From Octopus vulgaris (Eukaryota): a DNA stretch of 64,000 bases. The first letter of the stretch is position 1. Every line of letters begins with the position of its first letter. The notes beneath the pieces are model-generated. The model was not told the origin of the DNA. It was given only the letters and a program-made list of their open reading frames with translations, and searched no databases. Positions 3,842-63,178 of the stretch are shown piece by piece. The stretch covers positions 68,944,001 to 69,008,000 of the forward strand of contig OX597821.1 in NCBI GenBank assembly GCA_951406725.2. Direction: 5' to 3'. A program made the translations under genes and the position numbers.

Positions 3842-5887
3842 TTGTGCTTCACAAAAGTAAAGAGTAACCCATCAGATTAATGTTAAATTCTTCTGTTATA
3901 ACTGAATATAAAAGCAAACATTAATATATATGCATATATACACACTATGGGTATTCTGAATTTTAGAATAAGAACATTAAATCCCTGGAAGTTGTAAGAA
4001 GTGACTAAAAGGTTTGCATTAGGAAAGGCATCCAGCCATAAAATACTTCATTAAAATGCCTCATCTAACCCATGCCAGCCTGGAAATGTGTATGTAAAAA
4101 TTATATGTATGGGCCTTGTTCAGAAAGTCATTGGATCACCAGACATGGTGTTTTTTGACTCGACATAGTCTCTTTAGTAATGAATACCCTGGACATTTCT
4201 GAGCTAAGCCAACAGATGCTATTCCAACATAGAAGTTGGCAAACATACCATTTACTTATTTGTGTGAATGATAGCCAGGCTAGAATTAAATAAATATATG
4301 CACTTGAAACAGACTAAAATACCTTTATGTAGTCACTTATGCTAGAAATAGCAAATCACATATCCTAATAATTTTTTAAAAACCCACAAAACAGAAAATA
4401 CATTGGAGAATGTAGTCTTGTGTATGCATAGATATTGCCAAAGTTAAATAGACACCATCACTTTTCAATGATTTATTTCTAGAAACAAAATAATGTCATC
4501 TGATGCATTAAAATAGTTAATCTAGTATTTAGTTGGCCTGCCTCAAGCAGATTCCAATGACTTAACCTGTTTGGTCAATGTACTAATAAGTAGTGTCTGC
4601 ACAGATAAAATGATATAATGAGAGGTGTCTACTTTTGAGATGTCTGTGTATATGGGCAGCAGGAATGACTTTGATCATAGGGCCTGCTTAATGAGGACTG
4701 AGCAATGAGGGGCTTAACATTAGTAACACCAATACTTTGTACCTCCACAGTTTAAGTCTGAACTTGTTACAAAGCTATTAGTTTGATATTCCCATCATAA
4801 ACTACAGCAGTATACAAACCACCAAGTTACAGCAGGATGTAGTCTCTAGTCTTTCAATAGTCATTAATTTTTCACACAATCTCTCATTCAACCAATAAAT
4901 ATACATTTCTGAATGTTTGCTTAGTGATTTAATTGCTAATGCTTCAGCAAATTATAAGTTTGCATTTTGCTGAAGAAGTTCTGAGAATGAAACATGTTTA
5001 TGAATCTCAACCCACTTTAGATATTTCAGTGTTGCTTTAGCTAGTTAATGCATTAGATACACTTTCACCTACTTATCTATTAATTACCATGCAGGTGGCA
5101 TTGCAGAATAATTTAATTTTTCATTAAGTAATTGAATGAGCTGAGTGGGAATTGAATCCACATCGTACACACATATACACTATACTCTCCGCTAAGCTGC
5201 AGGTGAATTTTAAGAGCTAGTGCTTAACTAAAGAATCGTGATATTGGATGAGAGATAATCCTCCCACAGGTAAAACACTAGTCTTTATAACTAACATTCT
5301 CAGACAATGTGGCAACTATTTCTAAGAAATAGGTGAACTGAGGCAACGCAAAATAAAATTTTCTGCTCTGATACACAAAGAAATGCCTGCAGTACATTTG
5401 AACAACTGAACTGATATGAAACAATCCAATCCCTTACCTACTAATCCATATCACTTTTACAACTTAATACTGTTCATATCAGCTTTGACATACCCACAAA
5501 ACATTCCAGCCCAAATACTGTCAAATTTTTAACAAATACAAAGCTATGTATTAGAGCAAGGTGGGTTACTATTGGCCCAAGTTGTTCAAGTGCTAACTGT
5601 GTTCCTGACATTAGCTTTCATTAGTTGTGTTCACTTGACTGTGCAACAGTAAAATACAGTTCACTTATTTATGTAGAAGGCCTTTGTGTAAGCATAGAAG
5701 CATAGGTATGTGTATACATGCACACACATGTACCACTGTTTACTGTCCATTTCTTTGCTTGAATGGATCAAATAGAATTTGCAGAGGAGGATTATTTATA
5801 GCAAGATGCCCTTCCTGAATATATAGCAGCCACTGACTGGTTATGTTAATTCACCTCCAACAATAGAGAGCAGTTGCCATATTCCCT

Positions 5888-5995
5888 TCCATATCGGCTA
5901 ACTCTGATGAGAATAAGGTTATATAATCAGATTGTTATCTAACACTCCATTATATTCCTTGAGTGAAACCAAATGATAAGATCAGCTGTGATGGA
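5888..5995 (+). ncRNA. Degenerate type I hammerhead-like motif
   Basis: CTGATGA 5904-5910, long imperfect stem II (AAGG-TTATATAAT / ATTATAT-TCCTT), GAAA 5965-5968, and flanks partly complementary (CCAT..GCT..CT / AG..AGC..ATGG). Confidence 0.4.
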
Positions 5996-5999
5996 TATA

Positions 6000-7282
6000 T
6001 CAGGTTATTAAGAATGAAATGTGCAATTTTGAACTGAAAGTTTATTTTTACTTTATCTCAACAAAAAGCAATGCAGTTAATCAAAGTATGCACCTAAATT
6101 ATCAACACAATTTTGCCATTTTATCAGTAGCTTATTTATGCTCACAGCAAAGAATTCTGGAGAGCAAGAAGTGATTAAATTATGAAAGGCTGTTTTTGTA
6201 TCTTCTTCAGATTTGAAGTTTTTCCCTTGCAAAAAGTTGTCTAATGGTTGGGGTACATGATAGTCAGTTGGTGCAAGGCCTGGTGAATATGGTGGATGAG
6301 AGAGAACTTCCAAGTTCAGTTCCTATAACTTGAGTAGCATTCTTTGTGCAACATGTGGTCAAGCATTCTCTTGCAAGAGAATTTGCCTGTCTCTATAGAC
6401 CTATCTCAGTTGTTTAATTGCAAGTTCATGCATCATTTCATCCAGTTGGTTGATGTATACATCCACTGTAATTGACTTACGAGGTTTCATGAAGCTGTAG
6501 TGGATGACACCAGCACTGCACAACCAAACAGACACCATTAGCTTTTGTTTGGTGAATATTCTTTTTTGGATTGTGTTGGCACTTCGTCTCTATCCAACCA
6601 CCATGCATAACACTTGCTATTGTTGAAAAGAATCCATTTTTCATCACACATAACAACACAGTGCAAAAATAGTTTGCTTTTATGCTGTGACAGTAAAGAA
6701 CAGCAAGTTTCAAAATGACATGTCATTTGATACTCATTCAGTTCGTGTGATACCCACTTGTCCAGCTTCTTTACCATGACGATTTGTTTCAGATAGTCCT
6801 ATACAGTTGGAATCGAAACATCAAACCTTGCTCCTAACTCATGCATAATTTCAGATGTATGTTTCCACTATAGTTTCCAGCTCATCATTATCAAGCTAGG
6901 TCTCAGGTCTACCATGTGGATGATTTTCAAGAATAAAGTCACCAGACCAGTACTTCTCAAACCATTGATATACAGTATGTTCATCTGCCACATCTTCACT
7001 AAATACCTCATTGAAGTTTCAAGCTGTCTGAGATGCATTGGTCCCATGAAGGAACTCATATTCATAAACAACACAAATTTTTGATCTATCCATGGGTTCA
7101 CAAAAATTGATTTGAAAGAGAAAACTCACAATATAATCAGACACCATGAGTTGCATTTCAAAAAGTGATGATGTAACTCTTCAATGTCATAAAACAAAGA
7201 ATTGTCAGGATAAAACATTAGAGTTAACGACTGTCAAACATGGTGCATAAGAAAATCGGACATTTCATTCTTAACGACCTGA
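6000..7282 (-). mobile_element. Full-length but decayed mariner transposon (cecropia/Hsmar1-like)
   Basis: 31-bp imperfect TIRs (TCAGGTTATTAAGAATGAAATGTGCAATTTT at 6000-6030; complement at 7252-7282), TA at the left end, length 1283 bp. Confidence 0.9.
6077..7093 (-). pseudogene. Mariner DD34D-type transposase pseudogene
   Basis: MDRSKICVVYEYEF..., KKLDKWVSHEL, MCDEKWILF, HPPYSPGLAPTDYH, WQNCVDNLGAYFD*. Multiple stops and frameshifts. Confidence 0.92.
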
Positions 7283-7449
7283 GATAATACTATATATTTT
7301 GGATAACCATAATGATATCTGTGGGGCAGCTGATGATGGAGGTATGTTGGATTGTTGGTATAGCTGTTTTTGTATATGTGAAATAGCATTATTGGATTTT
7401 GGTATGGCTGTGGAATAGTATTATAACACATCCTTTTGATATATCAACA

Positions 7450-7830
7450 TCATCATCGTTTAACATCCGTTTTCCGTGCTAGCATGGACTGGACGGTTCG
7501 ACCAGGGTCTGGGAAGCCAGGAGGCTGCACTAGGCTCCAGTCTGATCTGGCAGTGTTTCTACAGCTGGATGCCCTTCCTAATGCCAACCACTCCGTGAGT
7601 GTAGTGAGTGCTTTTTACATGCCACTGGCACAGGTGCCAGGGGAGGTTGGCATCGACCATGATCGGATGGTGCTTTTTATATGCCACCGGCACAGGTATC
7701 ACAACTACAATTTCCGTTTGATTTTTATTTTGATGTTGATGTACTTGACTCAATAGGTCTCTTCAAGCACAGCAGGTCGCCCTATGATCCAAGGTAAGCA
7801 CAGCAGGCCATCCTGCAACCCAGGTACTTT
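7450..7830 (-). mobile_element. RTE-derived 3'-UTR repeat with (GAT)n tail, family C
   Basis: GAGTGGTTGGCATTAGGAAGGGCATCCAGC...CATGCTAGCACGGAAAACGGATGTTAAACGATGATG on minus. Many copies: 2295-2432, 7893-8045, 8717-8867, 41150-41380, 48430-48880, 59352-59527, 62095-62470. Confidence 0.8.
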
Positions 7831-14361: not shown

Positions 14362-14511
14362 TTAAAAATAACCCTCTAAAATCAAACTCAACTCAAATAA
14401 AATTCAACACAAAACAACTAAAAAAAAAAGGAAAAACGAAAACAATAAATTATAGACAAACAAAATTGGTAAACAATTTTATACAACACAAACTACAAAA
14501 CTGACGTCAAT

Positions 14512-14725
14512 TCTATATTTCTGAGATGAGGAATTTTAAAATTAGGTATGTTGCTTACATCAGTTGGACTGGTATCCTTTTGACTGTTGCTTTCACTATG
14601 TTTTGACCGCATATGCTGCAGCCTTCTTCAGGTGTCTTGCGATTCACCTTAGTGCCTTGTCTGGGATTGAATTCAGAACCTCTAAATGAGGACCACCATT
14701 CCAACTAATGTAAGCAGTGTACATA
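14512..14725 (-). mobile_element. Older relative of the hammerhead-bearing PLE/SINE-like family
   Basis: Minus strand: B-box-like GTTCTGAATTCAATCCC, then GACAC-CTGAAGA-AGGCTG...CGGTC-AAAA (GAAA decayed). Ends with the same AATTCCTCATCTC..AAATATAGA terminus as the 33.9 kb and 63.1 kb copies. Confidence 0.65.
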
Positions 14726-15532
14726 AAACTAACATTGTTTTAACAGCTTTTAACAGTTTTTCCATGCTTGTCCAGGTCAGATGGAATTAGTTGAAGCAGA
14801 TTTTTTTATGGCCAAATGCCCTTCCTGTTGCCAACCCTCATTTATTACCAAGTAAGGTAATATTTCCAACCCATGCCAACATGGAAAATGGATGTTAAAG
14901 GATGATGATAGTGATGATGATGATGATGGCAGGTTTCTTTCAGTTTCCATGTACCAAATCCATTCACAAGGCTTTGGTCAGCTTGGAGCTATAGAAAACA
15001 CTTGCCCAAGGTGTCATGCAGTGAAACTGAACCTGGAACCATGTGGTTGGGAAGCAAACTTCTTACCACACAGCCACACCTACACATATGCAGATATTCC
15101 AACTCTACTTAAACCACCCAGACACTTGGCTCCATAACCACAGATTCAAAGTAACAACTACAAAACCCAATGTCTTCCAACTATCGAACTCATCATCGTC
15201 TTTCAACATTCACATTCCCACTTGCATGAGTCAAATGGAATTTACTGAGGCAGATCCGCTATGGCCAGATGCCCTTCTTGTCACTAACTCTCACCTGTTT
15301 CCAAGCATGGAAATACAGATTTCAAATTTTGTCTCAAAGCCAGTAATTTCAGGGGAGGGGGTAAGTTGATTACATCAACCACAGTGTTCATCTGGTACGC
15401 TTTATTGACCCTGAAAGGGTGAAAGGCAAAGACAACCTCAACAGGATTTGAACTGAGAACATGAAGACAGATGAAATGCCACTAAGTATTTTGCCTAGTA
15501 TGCTAATGATTCTACCAGCTTGCCACCTTTAA

Positions 15533-16239: not shown

Positions 16240-16540
16240 GTTTGTTCCTTCTCGAGCCACGTCTGGCTCATAAGGGCTGGTTTCCCGGCTTCCTTGGCGT
16301 ATAGGTTCCTCACCTGGACGGGACACCGGTCCGTCGCAGGTGAGCTGCAAGATACAAGAGGAAAGAATGAGAGAAAGTTGTGGTGAAAGAGTCAGCAGAA
16401 GTTCGCCATTACATTCTGTCGGAGCCGCGTGGAGCTTAGGTGTTTCGCTCATAAACACACACATCACCCGGTCTGAGGTTCGAACTCGCGATCCCTCGAC
16501 TGCGAGTCCGCTGCACTAACCACTAGGCCATGTGCCTCCA
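16240..16540 (-). mobile_element. Young tRNA-derived SINE with TSD (tRNA-Arg-like head)
   Basis: GTGGAGGCACATGGCCTAGTGGTTAG..GACTCGCAGTC..GAGTTCGAACCTC, CpG-rich. TSD (A)CAAACTCCTT at 16229-16239 and 16540-16550. Confidence 0.88.
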
Positions 16541-32310: not shown

Positions 32311-33486
32311 GTCAAAAAGGTCCATAGGTAAAAAATTGTTCAGAATCCCTTGTCTAAAGAGATCATTATTTAAGGCAAACACAGATTTCTTTGGTTTTTG
32401 TTCTTTTTGGGATTCCTGGCAGAACTTATCTGACAACACAACTGCTATTAACATACAAGTCCTGTAATGGACTCCAAAACTCTCTGTGAACCATTGTGCT
32501 TTTAGCATAGACAATCATTTGTTATTTCTTAAGAACATATCTGATTCCCAATTTCTTGACATTGTTCCATTTAGATTGATCATTTGTGATCAAGAACTAA
32601 AGAAATTTAAAAGCAGAATGTACTGTATAGCCTTCAGAATGGAGTATGGCAACATTATCAGGAGAAAAACTGCAACATCAAAGAAGCAAATTTCAGCTTC
32701 TTGTTATCAAACCCTGTTGCAGAAAGCAAAAGAGACTCTTCTCTGTTCTGTAGTGAGTTTGGGTGCATTTTCATTGGCATATGCTATTAATGTGTTAACA
32801 GAAAATGATACCTCTTTCAAAAATTTATGTTGATGGATCTTTAACTTTAGTGTATTTAGTTTTAATGATGTCATATTTGAAGTTTTTGGATATTTATATT
32901 CAGCTGTGTGCACTATTTTCATACTGGAGTACGCTTGGTGAATTTGGTGCTTGAAATCTTTGGCAAGGTTATCATGATACTTGAACAAAAACTGAAGCAG
33001 GTTGGATGATTTACAGCATTTTGACAGTAAATTGAAAAGAACCCTAAGATTTTTGGATGTTTGAAATACAGAAGTTCCTAATTATGTTACATCCCACTGA
33101 CCATCATTCGCTAGAAATTCAAGGAAAAGCCAAACCTCTCTGTTGGTGTGTTGTAAACTTAGCCACTAACTATTCAAATATGTTGAAGTGAATTTAAGCC
33201 TAGCACTTTACATAAAAGAAATTGTAGAATGAAACATTCATATTGGACTAGTGTGTACAATCTACTCTCTTCCAATAACACTGTCAAAACTTGCATTTTT
33301 TTTTTTTTGCCTCCATTGCTTCTTTCCTCTGTGTGTGATATGATGAAACTTGAAGGTACAGCAATGTTTTTGTAAATGAGGAAAACAGTTGTAAGTATTA
33401 TGTCCTTTGGACTGCTTGCTGTACAGCATTTGTCTGAACAAAGTAATTTTGTTACACATTTTCAAATGGACAACAACTTGTTGAAT

Positions 33487-33643
33487 ATACATTATTTACA
33501 TTTGACAGATATTTGTCCTCATATTGTTTGTTGTTAACATGTTTCGGCTGATATACCCTCCAGCCTTCTTCAGGTGTCTTGGGGAAATTTCGAACCTGAG
33601 TTCTCATTCCTAAGGTATTTTTCAATGTTGTTGTTGTTGTTGA

Positions 33644-33704
<61 letters not shown>

Positions 33705-33976
33705 GTTATTATTATTCAGGTCACTGCCTGGAATCGAACTTAGAATCTTGAGGCTAGTAGCCTGTACTCTTAAACCACTACGCCATAATAACAACATTGA
33801 AAAATACCTTAGGAATGAGAACTCAGGTTCGAAATTTCCCCAAGTCACCTGAAGAAGGTTGGAGAGTATACCAGCTGAAACGTTGTGTTAACAACAAACA
33901 AGATGAGGACAAATATCCGTCAAATGTAAATAATGTAAATAATGTACATAATTCCTCATCTCTTAAATATAGCACT
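33487..33976. mobile_element. Palindromic non-autonomous retroelement: inverted hammerhead arms, (TTA)n spacer and tRNA-like segment
   Basis: Long inverted arms. Hammerhead cores at 33567-33573(-) and 33849-33855(+). A/B boxes on minus at 33775-33785 and 33730-33739. Flanking direct repeat ACTTGTTGAAT at 33476-33486 and 33974-33984. Confidence 0.85.
33844..33889 (+). ncRNA. Minimal type I hammerhead ribozyme motif
   Basis: GTCAC-CTGAAGA-A-GGTTG(N10)CAGCT-GAA-ACGT-T-GTGTT: helix I, core, stem II, palindromic ACGU helix III, GUU triplet. Confidence 0.65.
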
Positions 33977-34529
33977 TGTTGAATGTTAGAGATATCTTCC
34001 TGGATGGCAAAGATAAAAGAAAAAAAAGCAAGAATTTCTCATTGCCGCAGATGTTTTGTCTTTGCTTGTATCAGGTGGCTTCATTGAAGAGGTTTTGCTA
34101 TTTCAGGGCCAGGATTACTGCATCAGGTTCCTTAATGGCATATTTTTAGATAAATCTGATGGACATTATTGCATTGCAAAACTTAAAATTGATGTATGCA
34201 TTAAATATGTTGGTCAGCAGTGGGCTGTTACTCTGGTGTTTATATTCTATAAAAGGTATATCCATCTTCATCTGTTTGGGTGTTCTTGACAAATGGTCTT
34301 GGAAACTTTGGGGAGATATTAGTTGGCTTATACACTAAGTGAAATTCTGTTAAATACACCACAAGGGCCATGGCCAGTTGGCCTTAACAATATTTAAGAG
34401 TTCTTTATATTTGCAAGGATCTTGAAGCTTTGCATTTATTATGAAATCAGTATGTTTGGAAGAAATCTTATGATGGTTTTAGGTAAAAGAAAATACTGGA
34501 GGATCAGTTCATTATGATTTTATTCAAAA

Positions 34530-34836
34530 CTAGCAGTATCGCCCAGCGTTGCTCGGGTTTGTAAGGGAAATAACTATATAAGCATTTTTAGAGAGTTACT
34601 TCCCTTATATAACCCGAGCAAAAATCATAAAAAATGCGGAAAAATGATGGTAAATTTTTTTTTAAATCGTAGACTCATCGTAGACGCACGCTAATACCTA
34701 GAAGGGCTCGATATGAATGACGACTATAAGATACCCGCTTTTCGTTAAACTGCACCGCAAAATGTGGGAGTGGTTAGGAATCTAAATCGGAGGAGACAGA
34801 GTCTCAAACACACTACTTCAATTTTATATATAAAGA
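34530..34836 (-). mobile_element. Non-autonomous Helitron inserted into a mariner MITE
   Basis: Minus strand 5'-TC and 3' hairpin CCCGAGCAACGCTGGG + CTAG. Inserted between A and T with no TSD, and the MITE sequence resumes on both sides. Confidence 0.9.
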
Positions 34837-62819: not shown

Positions 62820-62950
62820 ATATTATTTACATTATTTACATTTGACGGATATTTGTCCTCGTCTTGTTTGTAGTAAACACAATGTTTCAGTTGATATACC
62901 CTCCAGCCTTCATCAGGTGTCTTGGAGAAATTTATAATAATAATAATAAC

Positions 62951-62988
<38 letters not shown>

Positions 62989-63178
62989 TAATAACATCAA
63001 AAAATACCTTAGGAAGGAGAACCAAGGTTTGGAATTTCCCTAAGATACCTGATGAAGGCTGGAGTGTATATCAGCTGAAACGTTGTGTTAACAACAAACA
63101 AGATGAAGACAAATATCAGTCAAATGTAAATAGTGTAAATAATGTACATAATTCCTCATCTCTTAAATATAGAACTGT
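62820..63178. mobile_element. Second copy of the palindromic hammerhead element, inserted in a SINE
   Basis: Cores at 62910-62916(-) and 63049-63055(+), (AAT)n centre, 12-bp TSD ATTTTGTCTGGT at 62808-19 and 63179-90. Confidence 0.88.

Follow-up and report, generated by a model that had tools for sequence, protein, structure and literature searches.

The unit at positions 33487..33976 of the window, the whole 64,000-nucleotide stretch of Octopus vulgaris DNA analysed here, belongs to an abundant autonomous Penelope-like element (PLE), of which it is a solo pseudo-LTR; it is not a separate non-coding element. Its insertion as an inverted pair, together with the likely function of its tRNA-derived A and B boxes as an internal RNA polymerase III (Pol III) promoter that fixes the start of most copies, is a reading to which a probability of about 0.65 is assigned.

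Layout and insertion of the window unit

The features of the unit and its surroundings are as follows.

33476..33486: left target-site duplication, a direct repeat of 11 bp, ACTTGTTGAAT
33974..33984: right target-site duplication, ACTTGTTGAAT, overlapping the element end by microhomology
32369..33266, minus strand: host Helitron remnant, downstream part on the helicase side (tblastn)
34080..34305, minus strand: host Helitron remnant, upstream part (tblastn)
33487..33787, minus strand: main arm, a solo Penelope-like pseudo-LTR that begins at +5 of the tRNA-like segment and ends at the proximal 3' end, which has no tail
33717..33787, minus strand: tRNA-derived segment, in long copies about 30 nt after the ORF stop codon
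33785-33775, minus strand: A-box TGGCGTAGTGG, motif read from the sequence
33739-33730, minus strand: B-box GTTCGATTCC, motif read from the sequence
about 33716-33629, minus strand: (AAT/AAC)n linker, whose length varies among copies
33487..33607, minus strand: ORF remnant, the first ~40 Penelope codons, with the ATG at 33607
33542..33578, minus strand: minimal type I hammerhead core of the main arm, with the GUU cut-site triplet after the core deleted
33785..33976, plus strand: inverted arm, more 5'-truncated, with linker remnant, ORF start (ATG 33815), hammerhead and tail
33844..33889, plus strand: minimal type I hammerhead of the inverted arm, with helix I, CUGAAGA, an extra A, helix II and GAAACGUU; predicted cut after 33884
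33946..33976, plus strand: ~33-nt tail, present on one arm only, a feature given as a Penelope signature in the available part of PMC11167929
14505-14745, minus strand: copy of an older sister family, about 73-81% identical to the window copy

The A-box, the B-box and the (AAT)n run that the earlier note had placed on the minus strand are all present there, and the string GACAC-CTGAAGA-A-GGCTG(N10)CAGCC-GAAA follows them, as described, at 33578-33542 (-). The combined A and B box pattern was observed twice in the 64-kb window against 0.03 expected (100 Markov-1 shuffles), and the hammerhead core pattern CTGANGAAGGCTGG five times against 0.02. As neither Rfam, in gathering and E-value modes, nor ARAGORN, which found no cloverleaf, returned a tRNA at the unit, the label 'tRNA-like' rests on the boxes and their spacing. 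A BLAST search of the head against the phage collection gave a single weak tRNA match (E 0.06).

The two arms (33485-33635 and 33787-33949) are 86-95% complementary and are fused at a 3-nt microhomology, 33785-33787. The direct repeat of 8-11 bp that had been reported to bound the unit proved to be an 11-bp target duplication, and the proposed insertion into a Helitron remnant was confirmed by tblastn matches on both flanks of the minus strand. These matches, to PIF1-bearing ORFs of the same genome, are colinear (34305-34080 followed by 33266-32369; best E 6e-18). The Helitron was not revealed by Pfam and PDB searches with the short flank frames, and BLAST of the flank against the phage collection gave no match. 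Further out, the end of a short high-copy repeat occupies 34474-34520 and is followed at 34530-34830 by another repeat, which may be Helitron-like.

For the family as a whole, 90 arms were picked by the hammerhead alone within the initial 51 Mb of a single contig, a few insertions contributing both arms. An inverted partner arm was found for 53 of them. Among these two-armed insertions, the ~33-nt tail was present on exactly one arm in 49 and on neither in 4, and no insertion carried it on both; direct repeats of 8-14 bp flanked 34 of the 53. The source variant is mostly common to both arms, N7 being concordant in 84 of 92 pairs. The inverted arm, the tail and the direct repeats are among the insertion signatures of PLEs as outlined in PMC8557442 and PMC8969392. 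Mobilisation by PLE rather than LINE machinery, which the earlier note had inferred, is thus borne out by the inverted 5'-truncated arm, the restriction of the tail to one arm and the existence of an autonomous partner with the same sequence.

A second inverted pair of the same family lies at 62820-63170 of the window. It is without the tRNA segment, both arms being truncated earlier, and has its tail on the right arm and a flanking direct repeat of ~11 bp. Elsewhere the (AAT)n linker often hosts insertions of other repeats, which part the head from the module (L029, L032, L066, L069 and L080).

The autonomous parent element and the question of a separate lineage

Exact matches to the 30-nt hammerhead core numbered 5,200 genome-wide, and those to a CpG-rich 31-nt head motif 714. 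The hammerhead module lay downstream of the head in 25 of 30 loci picked on the head; three of the remaining five carried other parts of the element and two did not. Hence, head, (AAT)n and hammerhead occur together across the genome, and the head is not confined to the window locus. In 7 of the 30 head-picked loci the shared sequence continues upstream of the head, where it encodes a putative GIY-YIG-type C-terminus. When loci were picked on this endonuclease-coding DNA alone, the tRNA-like segment was found ~30 nt behind the ORF stop in 28 of 30, and the module in 26 of 30.

Walking upstream from the endonuclease end reached the reverse transcriptase (RT) and full-length copies. The ORF of the autonomous element has ~840 codons and comprises an RT domain (Pfam RVT_1, E 2.8e-10, in L124) and the putative GIY-YIG-type end. 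The column majority of 102 segments gave a 783-aa open frame after the tail, for which 317 homologs were found. The C-terminal motif VYSIPCSCGRLYKGET..R..EH aligns by eye with homologs, some of which carry PF01541, while the fragments themselves gave no Pfam GIY-YIG match. The hammerhead module and the tail together make up the opening ~55 codons of this ORF, and an open frame runs through both into the ORF body (L142:691-1329); the N-terminal sequence TPDxG..PKRCVNN is also present in the distant relative P0004. Partial tandems that form pseudo-LTRs were seen at L156, L164, L169, L172, L180 and L181, and in four of these (L164, L169, L180 and L181) the order could be followed from the endonuclease through tRNA segment, (AAT)n, module and tail into the ORF.

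Given that the tRNA segment, the module and the tail are contiguous with the autonomous ORF, the window unit can be identified as a solo pseudo-LTR paired with an inverted arm. The match of the 3' module to the pseudo-LTR of an autonomous PLE, proposed as a check in the earlier note, was therefore found, the module being the ORF start of that element. The same result, together with the position of the tRNA segment inside the 3' region of the autonomous element, speaks against the view of the unit as a separate non-coding element. One homolog is an 836-aa protein of Anolis carolinensis (P0057; 38% identity), which is not established as the PAc element discussed below; the likeness to Poseidon consists in this identity and the domain order. 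When another intact PLE family was sought in the same genome, all 30 of 30 loci recovered belonged to the family described here, and control PLEs were therefore taken from metagenome contigs. Of 80 such loci, the 43 with a qualifying frame of at least 330 aa were used and the other 37 excluded. The GCCC-AC-GGGC hairpin before the head was considered as a fold-back junction and dropped, as it is native element sequence.

The defined 5' edge at the A and B boxes, the short length and the thousands of copies would also fit an independent SINE with a tRNA head that has taken up a Penelope 3' end and propagates in trans from its own master copies. Any solo copy retains the boxes and is in principle transcribable, and one variant of the module occurs somewhat more often among short units (5/37 versus 1/40, P=0.10). 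However, the tRNA segment belongs to the autonomous element, and a comparison of 38 edge-starting units with 40 ORF-linked pseudo-LTRs gave no diagnostic substitution; the differences amount to CpG decay, sampling-related gaps and the cut-site deletion. The variants common to both arms of a pair lie mainly at three sites and are present in ORF-linked copies too. With no diagnostic substitutions and with the shared variants also ORF-linked, there is no sign of self-propagating short units. A SINE of this kind, as suggested in the earlier note, is accordingly considered unlikely, although solo copies may occasionally serve as sources.

The older sister family represented at 14505-14745 has the same A and B boxes, hammerhead and tail and is without (AAT)n; 294 candidates were found (loci L184-L202). 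In 4 of 20 loci (L184, L189, L193 and L195, judged by eye) the ORF 5' end is joined directly to the 3' UTR. The sister family is an ORF-deleted tandem mini-Penelope and thus a real non-autonomous element in the window. Another SINE-like repeat with A and B boxes lies at 16542-16240 (-). Its head is similar to the Penelope tRNA segment around both boxes, and a SINE of this kind may therefore be the donor of that segment.

The tRNA edge as a candidate Pol III start

The tRNA segment was reached by 57 of the 90 arms picked on the hammerhead alone. Among the 41 arms that reach +8, 29 stop within -8..+8 of the tRNA edge and 12 run on upstream; a further 11 end at +9..+19, and only 5 of the 57 at +20..+74. 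The stop hazard at the edge is 5.9 per 100 nt, compared with 0.16 inside the tRNA segment, and is ~47-fold the upstream rate; the p value (about 1e-20) is optimistic, since the -8..+8 window was chosen after the data had been seen. Independently of the arm sample, exact 18-mers fell 5-fold genome-wide, from 6,097 inside the segment to 1,172 about 55 nt upstream. Initiation from a type 2 Pol III promoter is expected 0-15 nt before the A-box. As the tRNA-like promoter sits where most copies begin, the element is likely to be switched on by the polymerase that makes tRNAs, and the sequence makes initiation of the Pol III type at this edge plausible.

Another account of the edge would be an ordinary 5'-truncated Penelope that picked up a SINE fragment passively as its tRNA piece, with RT stalling or microhomology at a palindrome as the cause of the pile-up. 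A palindrome, TGCCC-AC-GGGCA, does occur there and can form a 4-bp hairpin (-5.4 kcal/mol); two heads are joined near it in 9 of 29 edge junctions, and the segment resembles the head of the other SINE-like repeat near 16530. The palindrome is nevertheless unused in the remaining 20 of the 29 edge ends, 6 edge ends have no partner arm, and the hairpin is weak for a stop rate of ~70%. The boxes moreover persist in the sister family, where the sequence between them has diverged, and the sense strand is without TTTT. Passive capture is accordingly held to be improbable.

TTTT was found neither in the 2,376-nt majority ORF body nor in the pseudo-LTR references on the sense strand. As judged by synonymous shuffles, 2.6 occurrences were expected in the ORF body (P=0.044), a marginal result on a T-poor strand (21.6% T). 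Decayed single copies contain 0-3 TTTT each, with none in 15 of 30. The 43 control Penelope ORFs from other organisms contained 334 against 295 expected, and only 2 of the 43 had none. Likewise, A and B boxes were found within 300 nt upstream of none of 33 control hammerhead-like sites, two of which had less than 300 nt of upstream DNA. Variability at the box positions among copies (0.039) is not clearly lower than elsewhere (0.047), as expected for dead copies.

In three RNA-seq runs (labelled as the same or a related species), depth was equal on both strands, without pile-ups at starts or ends, and tracked genomic copy number (module far above head, head above the endonuclease end, and the ORF body far below). 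This symmetry, which would also suit passive capture of the tRNA piece, fits passive read-through and cannot test a promoter; nor did reads pile up at the cut site, an observation that is no test of circles. The pseudo-LTR at L164:1405-2235 drew about 5,400-7,700 reads per run on both strands, with many opposite-strand joints. Transcribed inverted pairs could form double-stranded RNA; editing and copy differences are not separable in these reads.

The boxes could also be incidental to, or assist, a Pol II internal promoter with its true start at the edge, as in Drosophila virilis Penelope. The internal promoter of Penelope overlaps a 5'-UTR intron (Schostak 2008, as cited in the available part of PMC8557442), and translation of the ORF would pose no problem with a capped RNA. 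That the start sits where a type 2 Pol III promoter would place it, and the absence of TTTT, which a Pol II promoter does not predict, make this quite improbable. The translation problem itself counts against Pol III, as the route for an uncapped Pol III RNA is unexplained. In addition, six of the upstream pseudo-LTRs that remain joined to an ORF extend as far as the edge. Only 2 of these end at it and the other 4 continue for 60-700 nt further upstream; RNAs of ORF length thus often do not start at the edge.

Overall, the unit is an ordinary Penelope insertion product, and the family from which it comes has an unusual Pol III-type promoter that is probably functional. A more extended proposal is considerably more tentative and, in our view, rather doubtful: the whole 2.5-kb ORF element would be transcribed end to end by Pol III from a captured tRNA-type promoter, with the ORF kept free of TTTT; internal RT initiation would shed thousands of SINE-like promoter copies; and the 3-5-nt deletions at the cut site described below would record cleavage in vivo followed by an RT jump. 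Literature searches found no PLE with tRNA-derived Pol III boxes. Repbase, Dfam, SINEBase or genome-paper supplements may already list the repeat, possibly as a SINE; the main text of an octopus repeat annotation (PMC13282606) and of the giant squid genome paper (PMC6962438), as far as available, gives class counts only.

Hammerhead, proposed mechanism and related systems

The hammerhead of the unit has the architecture of the minimal PLE type, as set out in the available text of PMC4209133. In the head-bearing arm a 3-nt deletion removed the GUU cleavage triplet. For the inverted arm a full minimal type I fold had been claimed; ACGU and GUU are indeed kept, but helix I includes one U-U mismatch (GTCAC/GTGTT) and the minimum free energy fold is not a hammerhead. 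By this measure neither arm (z about -0.5 and 0) nor the cofolded dimer forms one, and Rfam hammerhead searches in gathering and E-value modes gave no match in the unit. Because copies within the family decay neutrally, covariation, which the earlier note had wished to see across copies, was tested across families instead. Helix I paired at 54 of 64 positions, against 30 after shuffling, in 16 distinct control PLE hammerheads. The predicted hammerhead would probably cleave poorly, and only as a dimer or with the help of protein.

Small deletions of 3 and 5 nt peak at the predicted cut site, where they were found in 42 of 278 arms (~15%). The rate elsewhere is about 2%, rising to at most 12 of 288 at a perfect AAC repeat close by. 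The deletions are independent in paired arms (70 pairs with none, 20 with one and 4 with both). In the window, the family-wide deletion position corresponds to 33881-33889 (+), and the lost site lies at about 33541 (-). The deletions could be a record of cleavage and an RT jump or could have arisen by slippage in GTTGTGTT; as ends no more than 2 nt from the predicted cut site were seen in just 2 of 101 inverted arms, their origin is left between these two readings.

This scarcity of ends at the cut site also bears on a non-LTR retrozyme that spreads through self-cleaved, circularised RNA, a class named in the earlier note. The type I hammerhead is present, and the older sister family, as an ORF-deleted tandem unit, is closer to the retrozyme or non-autonomous PLE class than the window unit is. 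Most copies of the family, however, occur as inverted pairs or as solos whose 5' ends lie at the tRNA edge, and not as head-to-tail arrays, only occasional two-unit tandems being seen (e.g. L075 and L246), and the hammerhead is of the minimal Penelope type. A retrozyme is thus scarcely credible here.

A possible route from the parent element to the solo pseudo-LTR can be drawn from the Poseidon system. The Poseidon protein nicks both strands of AT-rich DNA, reverse transcription begins at two internal start sites that bound the tail, and the hammerhead cleaves only in the presence of protein and is dispensable for insertion (Frangieh et al., in the available part of PMC11167929). In the octopus, the RNA would start at the tRNA edge, and RT would initiate internally at either tail boundary, as it does in vitro for the Anolis element. 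With priming in the first pseudo-LTR, only ~250-300 nt would be copied to the RNA 5' end, which would yield a SINE-like unit. Both nicked strands would be primed, giving one arm with and one without the tail, and the two cDNAs would then be joined head-to-head by microhomology (3 nt in the window unit).

The available text of PMC11167929 shows several points in common with the A. carolinensis element PAc (Penelope/Poseidon): a single ORF of ~835 aa with RT and a GIY-YIG end (putative in the octopus family), a hammerhead that overlaps the beginning of the ORF, two RT start sites on either side of an optional tail of 30-40 nt, and AT-rich targets. It describes no tRNA-derived A/B boxes or (AAT)n in the PAc pseudo-LTR, and it places the PAc ATG at stem II, whereas that of the octopus family lies 34 nt before the hammerhead core. 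With metazoan PLE pseudo-LTR hammerheads, as portrayed in the accessible part of PMC4209133, the family shares the short helix I, the unpaired base before helix II, the lack of helix III beyond the palindrome, and the occurrence as dispersed singles and opposite-strand pairs 100-700 bp apart. Helix II, at 5-6 bp, differs from theirs, and cut-site deletions like those in ~15% of octopus arms are not described in that part of the source.

The A/B boxes at the 5' end, the short length, the abundance and the defined 5' end recall tRNA-derived SINEs, including octopus OR2 (CORE SINE; Ohshima and Okada 1994, as cited in the available part of PMC4758252). In organisation the unit differs from these, being a piece of an autonomous element, with Penelope inversion and tail instead of a LINE-type 3' tail and with no separate lineage. 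Non-LTR retrozymes (bioRxiv 10.64898/2026.07.22.740005; PMC7761336) and the non-autonomous Chlamys/MRC1 PLEs (PMC8557442) are similarly non-coding, pseudo-LTR-related, and hammerhead-bearing or PLE-dependent. As far as the available parts of these sources go, however, they form tandem arrays or separate non-autonomous families and are not mentioned with Pol III boxes.

The octopus family bears on how PLEs are transcribed, on the role of the hammerhead in vivo and on the origin of the inverted-arm and tail structure. It supplies thousands of insertions with a sharp 5' edge at a Pol III-type promoter, a one-tail rule without a two-tailed exception, and deletions that recur at the cut site. It further illustrates how SINE-like repeats can originate within an autonomous element, and it serves as a warning that automated annotation would label such units as SINEs.
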